This document shows positions 843 through 4,143 of a DNA stretch of 4,143 bases, piece by piece (the first letter of the stretch is position 1; each line of letters begins with the position of its first letter). The notes beneath the pieces were generated by a model that was given only the letters and a program-made list of their open reading frames with translations, was not told the DNA's origin and ran no database searches. The position numbers and the translations under genes are program-made. Source of the DNA: a virus (taxonomy: Duplodnaviria > Heunggongvirae > Uroviricota > Caudoviricetes); the IMG/VR virus record IMGVR_UViG_2548877009_000015; one strand, 5' to 3'.

Positions 843-1075
843 AACCCCCCCCCATTTTCACAATCAGCAATCAGGATGGCTTTGGCCTCATTCAGCGCCA
901 TATCAGCACTAAGTTGCATAACCGCCAGCGAATGAGGAACGAAAGCCCCTGCATATTCTGTTTCACTGGTGGCGTGCTTATGCGCCCTGTCAGCAATAAC
1001 AGAAATATCAATAAGCGCGAGCATCAGCGTAGTGAGCGCGGCGGCGGTTGCGTCCGGACGGATGTTATTGCACAT
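815..1075 (-). CDS. Hypothetical small protein C, 86 aa from the internal ATG (track ORF starts at 1132)
   Basis: ATG at 1073-1075 preceded by GGAGGGG with a 6-nt spacer; overlaps the end of B by 11 nt. Contains a hydrophobic stretch AAALTTLMLALIDISVIA. Its C-terminal Gly-Gly-Gly is encoded by the G9 tract. Confidence 0.5.
   Translation of the reverse strand: MCNNIRPDATAAALTTLMLALIDISVIADRAHKHATSETEYAGAFVPHSLAVMQLSADMALNEAKAILIADCENGGGLCVMIVLIP
845..853. repeat. Homopolymer C9 (G9 on the coding strand) at the C/D junction
   Basis: Nine consecutive C at 845-853. On the minus strand it reads GGGGGGGGG-TT-ATG, directly upstream of the start of D and inside the 3' end of C. Confidence 0.9.
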
Positions 1076-1298
1076 GGTGTACCCCTCCGCATTTTTTTTC
1101 GTTAGAAATAAGCGTTCTTCTTTCCTGTTCATCGCTCAGGAATACGCAGACCTCACCGCTAAGGCGTTTAAGTAAGCCGATGATTGCCCCTGATTCGCTG
1201 TCGGTCATCATGCCAGGGTAATCCTCTGCCAGTGCGCAAATAACTTCGATTTGGTGGGCGCGTTCTGCTGCCTGTTGTAGTGTGATTTCCTGGCTCAT
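1065..1298 (-). CDS. Hypothetical small protein B, 77 aa, from the ATG-initiated start (track ORF extends to a TTG at 1355)
   Basis: ATG at 1296-1298 overlaps the stop of A (ATGA) and is preceded by GGAGG with a 7-nt spacer. Acidic, helical-looking MSQEITLQQAAERAHQIEVICALAEDYPG... Confidence 0.55.
   Translation of the reverse strand: MSQEITLQQAAERAHQIEVICALAEDYPGMMTDSESGAIIGLLKRLSGEVCVFLSDEQERRTLISNEKKCGGVHHVQ
1092..1099. repeat. Homopolymer T8 (A8 on the coding strand) at the B/C junction
   Basis: Encodes Lys-Lys (GAA AAA AAA) near the C-terminus of B, immediately upstream of the Shine-Dalgarno of C. Confidence 0.9.
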
Positions 1299-2901: not shown

Positions 2902-4143
2902 CTAAACGGCTCGGATACCCCTTTTACCACTGGCGAGGGTTACGCCCGTCGCCGCAGCCTCGACAAATTCGCCCCACCAGCGCATAAGCACGATGCGTTT
3001 TTCTATGTAGTTGCTCCGGTTGTATGCCCGTCTGACTTCGTTGGTGTCGACGTGGGCAAGTGCGGCCTCTATTACGTCTGGCTCAAAGCCTTCTTCGTTC
3101 GCTGCTGTGCTGAATATGGCGCGTAATCCATGAGACACCAGCACGCCAGCGAATCCCATGCGTCGTAATGCTGCGTTAGCGGTCTGGCTGTTCATCGGCT
3201 GCTGTGGGTCTTTCAGACTCGGGAAAACATAATCGCGGTGGTGGCTGATTGGTTTCATAGCCTCCAGCACTGCCATAGCCTGGTCACAAAGCGGGATAAC
3301 GTGGTCGCGGCGCATCTTCATGCGTCCGGCGGGTATGGTCCAGCGTTGCGCTTCCATGTCGATTTCTTCCCAGCGTGCCGACGATGCTTCAACGGGACGG
3401 GTTACGGTCAGTAACTGCCATTCAATCAGTAATCTGGTCTGCCGTTCTGTTGCCGATACTGATAAAGCCTGCATAAGCTCCGGCAGCTGTTCGGGGCGGA
3501 TTGTTGGCATATGTTTTTTTACAGGGGAGGGGAACGCCTTACGCACATTCATAGCCGGATTGGCATCAATCATCCCACTATTGGCGGCGTAATCCATTAC
3601 CTCATTTATACGCTGTAAAACTCGCTTGAGCGTTTCCAGGTTGCCACGTTCCTTGATGGGGGTAAGCACCTCAACGAACCTGCGAGCGGTCAGGGTGTCT
3701 ATTGGCGTGTTGCCGATGAACGGGAATACATATTTTTCCAGCGATCGCCAGATGTCTTTAATCGTATTGGGGGCCAGATTCTGGCTGATTTTCACCTGGT
3801 ACCATGCTGTTGCCACATTTTCGAACGTGTTCCCTTGTCTTCGGGCCTCTGTCTCTCTTTTTTGCCTCTCGTGGTCCTGCGGGTCAGTTCCGGCACGAAT
3901 TAACGCCCTGTACTCGCTACGGCGTTTTCTGGCATCAGCCAGGGAAACATCATCAAGCGATCCAAAACTCAGCAATATTCTTTTTTTGTCCGATGGTCGG
4001 TAGTAGGAAAATCTCCAGAGTTTTGATCCGGACGGTTTGATCAGGAGAAAAAGCCCTCCGCCGTCCTGTAGGGTGTATTCCTTTTCTGCTGGTCTGGCTG
4101 CTTTGATCTGTACTGTGGTTAATGGGGGTGTTTTTCTCGCCAT
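2902..4143 (-). CDS. int: Tyrosine recombinase, P4-family phage integrase, 413 aa
   Basis: 413-aa ORF starting MARKTPPLTTVQIKAARP. N-terminal arm-binding-type region (DGGGLFLLIKPSGSKLWRFSYY...SLADARKRR). C-terminal catalytic signature with Arg in TRPVEASSARWEEID, HGLR (HxxR box) and LAHVDTNEVRRAYNRSNYIEKR with the catalytic Tyr, then MRWWGEF. ATG at 4141-4143 (cat on plus), TAG stop at 2902-2904. Confidence 0.95.
   Translation of the reverse strand: MARKTPPLTTVQIKAARPAEKEYTLQDGGGLFLLIKPSGSKLWRFSYYRPSDKKRILLSFGSLDDVSLADARKRRSEYRALIRAGTDPQDHERQKRETEARRQGNTFENVATAWYQVKISQNLAPNTIKDIWRSLEKYVFPFIGNTPIDTLTARRFVEVLTPIKERGNLETLKRVLQRINEVMDYAANSGMIDANPAMNVRKAFPSPVKKHMPTIRPEQLPELMQALSVSATERQTRLLIEWQLLTVTRPVEASSARWEEIDMEAQRWTIPAGRMKMRRDHVIPLCDQAMAVLEAMKPISHHRDYVFPSLKDPQQPMNSQTANAALRRMGFAGVLVSHGLRAIFSTAANEEGFEPDVIEAALAHVDTNEVRRAYNRSNYIEKRIVLMRWWGEFVEAAATGVTLASGKRGIRAV

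Follow-up and report, generated by a model that had tools for sequence, protein, structure and literature searches.

The A8 tract between genes B and C of an Escherichia coli satellite operon: probable ordinary packing of three separate small genes

Genes B, C and D in the leftward operon of the analysed DNA (a stretch of 4,143 nt, referred to as "the window") are very probably three separate small genes whose products are each predicted to be a helical hairpin; they are tightly packed, and presumably coupled, in the early operon of an E. coli satellite of the P4-like/PICI type, with the A8 tract at the B/C boundary being a product of ordinary gene packing. This reading is carried by the anatomy of the B/C junction, by a conserved start of C that is independent of B, by the modular occurrence of B, and by the predominance of A8 among homologous loci.

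The window combines, in a small island, an integrase, an AlpA-type regulator and the start of a primase/replicase module (Table 1), as is characteristic of P4-like/PICI satellites. In a 2026 survey of Enterobacter satellites, Icd-like, AlpA, integrase and primase genes are described as typical content (PMC13612085). The leftward operon reads Icd-like gene, B, C, D, E, DUF4222 gene and RepA helicase/primase gene, which is also the order in the homologous loci annotated by PGAP; the last of these genes starts at position 84 and leaves the window leftward. Judged by its position and its good match to a sigma-70-like consensus, the promoter-like site upstream of the Icd-like gene would drive this operon. 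Spacing is tight throughout, with overlaps of 4 nt (ATGA) at Icd/B, 11 nt at B/C, 28 nt at C/D in the window (8 nt in a form with one G less, G8) and 4 nt (ATGA) at DUF4222/helicase, and with spacers of 1 nt between D and E and of 5 nt at another boundary. Inside the Icd-like gene, a terminator-like hairpin is present on the minus strand at 1434–1454, and the divergently placed HicB/YlcI-like gene contains a C7 run at 1671–1677 as a further potential slippage site.

Table 1. Features of the window and their coordinates
Feature	Position	Strand	Remarks
Tyrosine integrase, P4-type, 413-aa ORF	2902–4143	minus	annotated as integrase in homologous loci
AlpA-like HTH gene	2199–2405	minus	
HicB/YlcI-like gene	1622–1816	plus	between the divergent arms
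Promoter-like site, TTGACA-18-TATGTT (10/12)	1599–1628	minus	upstream of the leftward early operon; consensus match only
Icd-like gene, 64 aa, first in operon	1295–1489	minus	NCBIfam NF033153, E 5e-18; PGAP on homologous loci
Gene B, 77 aa	1065–1298	minus	PHROG phrog_1478
A8 tract	1092–1099	minus	T8 on the plus strand
Shine-Dalgarno GGAGGGG of C	1082–1088	minus	within the 3' end of B
Gene C, 86 aa in the G9 state	815–1075	minus	PHROG phrog_5146
G9 tract, C/D junction	845–853	minus	C9 on the plus strand; also G-rich ribosome-binding region of D
Gene D, 73 aa	621–842	minus	PHROG phrog_24341
Gene E, 77 aa	386–619	minus	phrog_2196
DUF4222 gene, 99 aa	81–380	minus	Pfam PF13973, E 2e-23
RepA-helicase/primase gene, 5' end, first 28 codons	1–84	minus	PGAP on homologous loci

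Related elements are carried by 1574 of 5426 complete E. coli genomes (~29%), with up to six copies per genome, and the related IMG/VR contigs are mostly 7–17 kb in size. The whole window was recovered from none of the complete RefSeq E. coli genomes, the best coverage being 93%, in two to four pieces; since no complete genome holds it end to end, though 1574 carry related elements, the island family is a recombinant mosaic. For B, C and D, neither Pfam nor NCBIfam returned a family match, the PHROG matches were solely to families of "unknown function", and a literature search found neither the genes nor the homopolymer polymorphism described. Searching Rfam gave nothing at gathering scores and only chance-level matches at E up to 1.

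At the B/C junction, the arrangement is the one that the first-pass annotation had read from the letters: a run of eight A residues in the final codons of B, a GGAGGGG ribosome-binding site placed correctly before the ATG of C, and a frame relationship in which a 1-nt deletion puts B into the frame of C and two single-base changes (A8 to A7, G9 to G10) join B, C and D. Both the deletion product and the fully joined frame turned out to exist in natural alleles. The last twelve codons of B are GAA AAA AAA TGC GGA GGG GTA CAC CAT GTG CAA TAA. Herein, the A8 tract consists of the second and third positions of the Glu66 codon plus the complete codons of Lys67-Lys68, and it ends 3 nt upstream of the GGAGGGG of C, which in turn precedes the C start codon (1075–1073) by 6 nt. 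The TAA of B (1065–1067) lies 11 nt beyond the ATG of C, producing an 11-nt overlap (ATGTGCAATAA) of stop and start as is expected of a coupled gene pair. Because the frame of C is +1 with respect to that of B, the deletion of one A fuses B to C, reading ...EKNAEGYTMCNN... across the junction.

In first-order Markov simulations of the window, an A/T run of at least eight residues arose in 46% of cases and a G/C run of at least nine in only 1.4%; thus, the A8 tract is statistically unremarkable and the G run is remarkable. In the nearest complete-genome locus (L001), which is 98.3% identical and has the same A8 and G9 tracts, PGAP annotates B, C and D as three genes, and it also keeps them separate in other A8 loci.

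The start of C does not depend on B. It is found behind three unrelated upstream genes, namely B itself, an Icd-like gene that directly precedes C in L004 with the same ...CATGTGCAATAA overlap as B, and an unrelated 70-aa gene in O157:H7 (L005). Across all three contexts, the ATG of C is kept in 10 loci together with a Shine-Dalgarno sequence 5–8 nt upstream, as expected of a gene with its own start. Among the 120 C homologue clusters listed, none carries an N-terminal extension derived from B, the two that are extended at the N-terminus being Icd-C fusions. B-only, C-only and D-only homologues as well as the corresponding PHROG families exist, so that the pieces occur as independent genes, which is not what would be expected of the fragments of a pseudogene. 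In the window, the predicted helical hairpin of C leads into GGG and then into the out-of-frame tail LCVMIVLIP. Queried by tblastn, the C-D fusion had no match among 50,697 phage records.

Gene B is an independent family and cassette, a gene in its own right. Its residues 2–62 align with the 63-residue profile phrog_1478, and tblastn recovered stand-alone relatives of 62–64 aa, covering its residues 4–61, from the Salmonella phage Fels-1 as well as from Klebsiella prophages. Over the latter residues, the homologues in Fels-1 (L010, 1195–1389) and in a Klebsiella phage (L011, 1195–1383) show 38–41% identity. These distant homologues are situated in the early region of temperate phages, the one in L011 adjoining a gene annotated as recombination-related exonuclease and the one in L010 being located downstream of a repressor gene; B is therefore not satellite-specific. 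A scan of genome contigs revealed no B relatives beyond those in the E. coli sets. The 3' end of B was found in 257 complete genomes, compared with 655 for the junction of C end, G tract and D start; B is missing from most elements carrying C-D, and it thus shows a cassette-like presence/absence.

The tail of B varies by allele, with the termini ...NEKKCGGVHHVQ, ...VHVQ, ...VNHVQ and ...NGKNEGAPCLKC, each followed by a stop codon. In a divergent allele (L009), B ends in ...NAKNAEG, the A run is interrupted (ACGCAAAAAAT), and a TAA located 3 nt upstream of the C start codon parts B from C although the frame is shared. The residues encoded by A8 lie past the portion conserved between B and its distant relatives, and the A8-bearing tail is dispensable. 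As to the endings in the wider operon family, B- and Icd-type genes terminate in ...HVQ via CATGTGCAATAA, and many other genes terminate in ...HA or ...YA via ATGCGTGA (L002, L005).

The length of the A tract was followed with a 67-nt query comprising the 3' end of B and the A run, which located 271 places in 257 complete E. coli genomes. A8 is present in ~80% of these places, with an exact match to the query in 203 of the 257 genomes, and among the IMG/VR loci with the junction it is present in 28 of 30, the other two having A7; the G tract in these loci measures 7, 8, 9 or 10. The split form, and not an intact single ORF, is hence the predominant one among homologues. A7, by which B and C are fused, occurs in 49 places, all of one flank haplotype and nearly all from O111:H8/H-/NM STEC; in this clade, including the finished reference strain 11128, it is fixed. 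A locus that was compared with regard to a shared descent of the A7 and A8 haplotypes (L043) is a mosaic. The principal B clusters of the protein database are 76–78 aa long, and a few representatives correspond to A7 (B-C fusion) or A9 products, both of which are low-frequency variants of the tract.

Sporadic A7 with window-like flanks was seen in four further genomes. Of these, the lab strain 25DN (L007) has A7 and ATCC 25922, which it resembles, has A8; the EcN_Sk assembly (NZ_CP172017.1) lacks one base in the A tract and one in the G tract relative to other assemblies of Nissle 1917. At the G tract, the Nissle assemblies differ as G8 versus G7, which points to an assembly error, since the deviating assembly is the one that also lacks a base at A8. 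Going by these comparisons of like strains, the A7 of 25DN and EcN_Sk is probably due to homopolymer under-calling by the assembler, and the 146-aa B-C "protein" that it yields (WP_251120848.1) is probably spurious; part of the homopolymer variation may be assembly error. Overall, A8 has rarely changed, and the slippage rates of A8 and of the G tract are very different.

Fusion and deletion between neighbouring cassettes are common in the operon family. In O111-clade elements (L006, L044), A7 in combination with G9 gives a B-C fusion that ends in LCVMIVLIP and leaves D separate; on these alleles, PGAP leaves B unannotated and marks the C-D region as "frameshifted". As A7 is fixed in the clade, finished strain 11128 included, the B-C fusion is at least tolerated. 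A single genome, SD134209 (L008), combines A7 with G10 and possesses a complete B-C-D ORF of 221 aa, of which PGAP annotates only the C-D part (148 aa). The fusions retain the internal ATG and the ribosome-binding region of the downstream gene. Other joined products, found among P0131, P0133, P0155, P0021 and P0060, are a chimera in which B runs into the C-terminal portion of a C-like gene (...RTLISARSLDKAKNILIADVNG), a gene X of 121 aa that is linked to D at RLRDD/MRDD, and fusions of Icd with C.

At the C/D junction, the G tract is a genuine hot spot at which genes become fused or split. It directly precedes the ATG of D (842) and ranges from 7 to 12 residues between strains, displaying the length polymorphism of a contingency locus. 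With G7 or G10, C and D are fused in frame (...CENGG(G)VMRDDRF...; 150, 151 or 154 aa; phrog_2512); with G8 or G11, C ends in ...GGG(G)YA and overlaps D by 8 nt (ATGCGTGA); with G9 (the state of the window) or G12, C acquires its nine-residue out-of-frame tail and ends 25 nt inside D. The own ATG of D is kept in every one of these states, fusions included. Among the 120 listed C clusters, 58 represent fusions of 150–151 aa, 26 the 86/87-aa type and ~13 the 79/80-aa type ending in YA; in many of the 86-aa clusters, the tails vary in step with the D alleles.

The frequency of the G-tract states was estimated from 60 evenly spaced rows out of 895 matching genomes, with 44 rows (655 genomes) spanning the whole junction. 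In these 44 rows, G7 accounts for 45% (a share inflated by clonal O157:H7), G9 for 27% and G8 for 20%, and G10, G11 and G12 are represented by one row each. G9 is present in an estimated 180 complete genomes (12 of the 60 evenly spaced rows, at ~15 genomes per row). The ATGCGTGA overlap, by which the upstream gene ends in ...YA or ...HA, recurs at several other boundaries of the operon family, so that the G8 form conforms to the usual junction of this family; a related overlap gives an ...HE ending. The starts of D (834–842) and E (611–619) both begin with ATGCGTGAT. The shared junction sequences ATGCGTGAT, ATGCGTGA and CATGTGCAATAA look like breakpoints for the swapping of gene cassettes.

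To place C and D in a wider context, 1.84 billion representative proteins were searched for their relatives. Those with less than about 55% identity and without the G tract are either C-only (71–84 aa) or D-only (74–78 aa), the D-only relatives beginning exactly at fusion residue 78, and most of the longer relatives are G-tract fusions or visibly frameshifted or chimeric products. Given that the distant relatives without the tract are separate and that the fusions keep the ATG of D, the C-D fusions are read as the derived state, produced when slippage joined two coupled genes, and the window is not read as a broken fusion.

For B alone, AlphaFold2 predicts a helical hairpin at residues 7–70 (helices 7–26 and 34–70) with a pLDDT of 80 in the best model, obtained from a shallow alignment of 8 near-identical sequences, and with a pLDDT of at most 59 in the other four models. 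Lys67-Lys68 are located at the end of the second predicted helix, where the confidence is dropping, and residues 72–77 have a pLDDT below 50. The C-D fusion (P0014) is modelled as two hairpins, at residues 9–73 and 97–147 (pLDDT ~62–77), which are connected by a linker at residues 76–100 with a pLDDT below 50; given a pTM of 0.45, there is no confident packing between the C and D domains. A sequence search of the fusion against PDB chains gave nothing at E up to 1. Foldseek matches of the C-D model in the PDB were generic helical hairpins with E >1 for a model of pLDDT 64, and they were discarded as not meaningful. Profile–profile comparison of B with C-D found no relationship; B and C-D are, thus, not detectable paralogues.

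Taken as a working model, ribosomes translating B would pass the A-rich stretch and the Shine-Dalgarno sequence of C before terminating 11 nt beyond the C start codon; C itself would start from its own GGAGGGG/ATG, probably coupled to the termination on B by termination–reinitiation. The same coupling logic would apply at every boundary of the operon. The A-rich stretch possibly contributes by keeping the ribosome-binding site of C unstructured and accessible. Slippage from A8 to A7 has fused B and C in the O111 clade, and frequent slippage in the G tract sets C to one of its three states.

This model has to be weighed against the possibility, raised by the first-pass annotation, that B, C and D are a single gene of about 230 aa broken by two homopolymer frameshifts. 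That the three are the remains of one ancestral gene of ~220–230 aa, pseudogenized by indels in the A and G tracts, is extremely improbable by now and this reading is largely refuted. It can draw on the 221-aa ORF of SD134209 (A7 and G10), on the B-C fusions of the O111 clade and the frequent C-D fusions, and on the "frameshifted" label that PGAP assigns to the O111 G9 allele. However, A8 is the majority state (~80%), C occurs without B in most elements, behind other genes and with its own Shine-Dalgarno sequence and ATG, the distant relatives of B, C and D are stand-alone small ORFs, every fusion keeps the internal start and ribosome-binding region of the downstream gene, and the profiles of B and C-D are unrelated. 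The single long ORF that the annotation had proposed to look for elsewhere does exist, but as a small, phylogenetically confined minority. As an ancestral or normal state, the single gene is therefore unsupported, given the A8 majority and the separateness of the distant relatives; what survives of the idea is that A7 is fixed in O111, that one genome has the joined B-C-D frame, and that in-frame C-D fusions are among the commonest states. The proposed comparison of fused and separate folds covered B alone and the C-D fusion, with B predicted as a hairpin on its own and C-D as two hairpins around a linker of low confidence. Overlapping coupled genes, which the annotation had slightly favoured, are supported at the B/C junction, where the A8 majority, the conserved start region of C and the stand-alone B relatives argue for them; the coupling itself is probable.

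Runs of eight A residues are slippage-prone for both RNA polymerase and the ribosome. A8 might, thus, be a programmed recoding site, at which transcriptional slippage or +1 sliding of the Lys-tRNA generates a minor B-C fusion beside separate B and C; C is in the +1 frame and within reach of a one-base slip on the run, and the O111 clade demonstrates that a B-C fusion protein is tolerated in nature. We nevertheless regard such recoding as very unlikely, considering that chance alone accounts for A/T runs as long as this one, that there is no stimulatory RNA structure (an 86-nt segment beginning at the run is no more stably folded than its shuffled versions, z = +0.60), and that L009 both interrupts the run and puts a stop between B and C, so that conservation as a recoding signal is lacking. 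In comparison with the programmed -1 sites of dnaX and insertion sequences (A_AAA_AAG plus stimulator), the heptamer A_AAA_AAA is present here in the correct register of the B frame (GA[A AAA AAA]), but the target C is in the +1 frame, there is no structure 5–9 nt downstream, and the -1 frame (...KKMRRGT...) closes after ~22 codons, short of C, leaving no extended -1 ORF. Of equally low probability is the explanation that the homopolymer lengths of the window are sequencing or assembly errors and that the true frame arrangement is another one. Assemblies of the same or similar strains do disagree (EcN_Sk and Nissle 1917; 25DN and ATCC 25922); however, A8 is the consensus state, and G9 is widespread and also found in the 98.3%-identical locus L001. 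Only slightly less doubtful, and still improbable, is a scenario in which both homopolymers are functional switches, with phase variation of the G tract and low-level slippage on A8 setting the ratio of separate to fused hairpin proteins (B-C, C-D, B-C-D). If it were true, a helper-interference or regulatory function would be tuned between lineages or within a population. As in contingency loci, the G tract is length-polymorphic between similar elements and has three reading-frame outcomes; unlike in these loci, there is no ON/OFF logic, since the start of D and the folded domain of C are kept in all states.

For annotation, the preferred reading of three separate genes implies that B, C and D in the window should be called as such. 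Homologous loci are currently annotated as two genes, as one fused gene or as a "frameshifted" pseudogene, and with B unannotated in O111; this inconsistency of the public annotation arises from the hypervariable G tract and, rarely, from the A tract. Recognizing the variation of the tracts prevents spurious pseudogene calls in a satellite family that is present in ~29% of complete E. coli genomes. Furthermore, the natural coexistence of fused and unfused alleles suggests that C and D, and possibly B, act together, which would be a cheap lead to the function of uncharacterised satellite proteins.

Compared with known systems, the window shares the integrase, the AlpA-like, Icd-like and DUF4222 genes and the start of the primase/helicase with P4-like/PICI-type satellites of Enterobacteriaceae; this type assignment is made from the 4.1-kb window, with genes for capsid remodelling/packaging or helper exploitation (sid/psu/delta) lying outside of it. 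The promoter match and the hairpin in the Icd-like gene recall the immunity/termination control of the left operon of P4. As in the coupled overlapping genes of phage and satellite early operons (with ATGA or ATGNNNTGA overlaps), every boundary in the present operon is tight and the Shine-Dalgarno sequence of the downstream gene is located inside the upstream gene, and in this respect the B/C boundary has nothing unusual. B, C and D fit well-known kinds, i.e., coupled overlapping genes combined with homopolymer indel polymorphism, and are otherwise ordinary.
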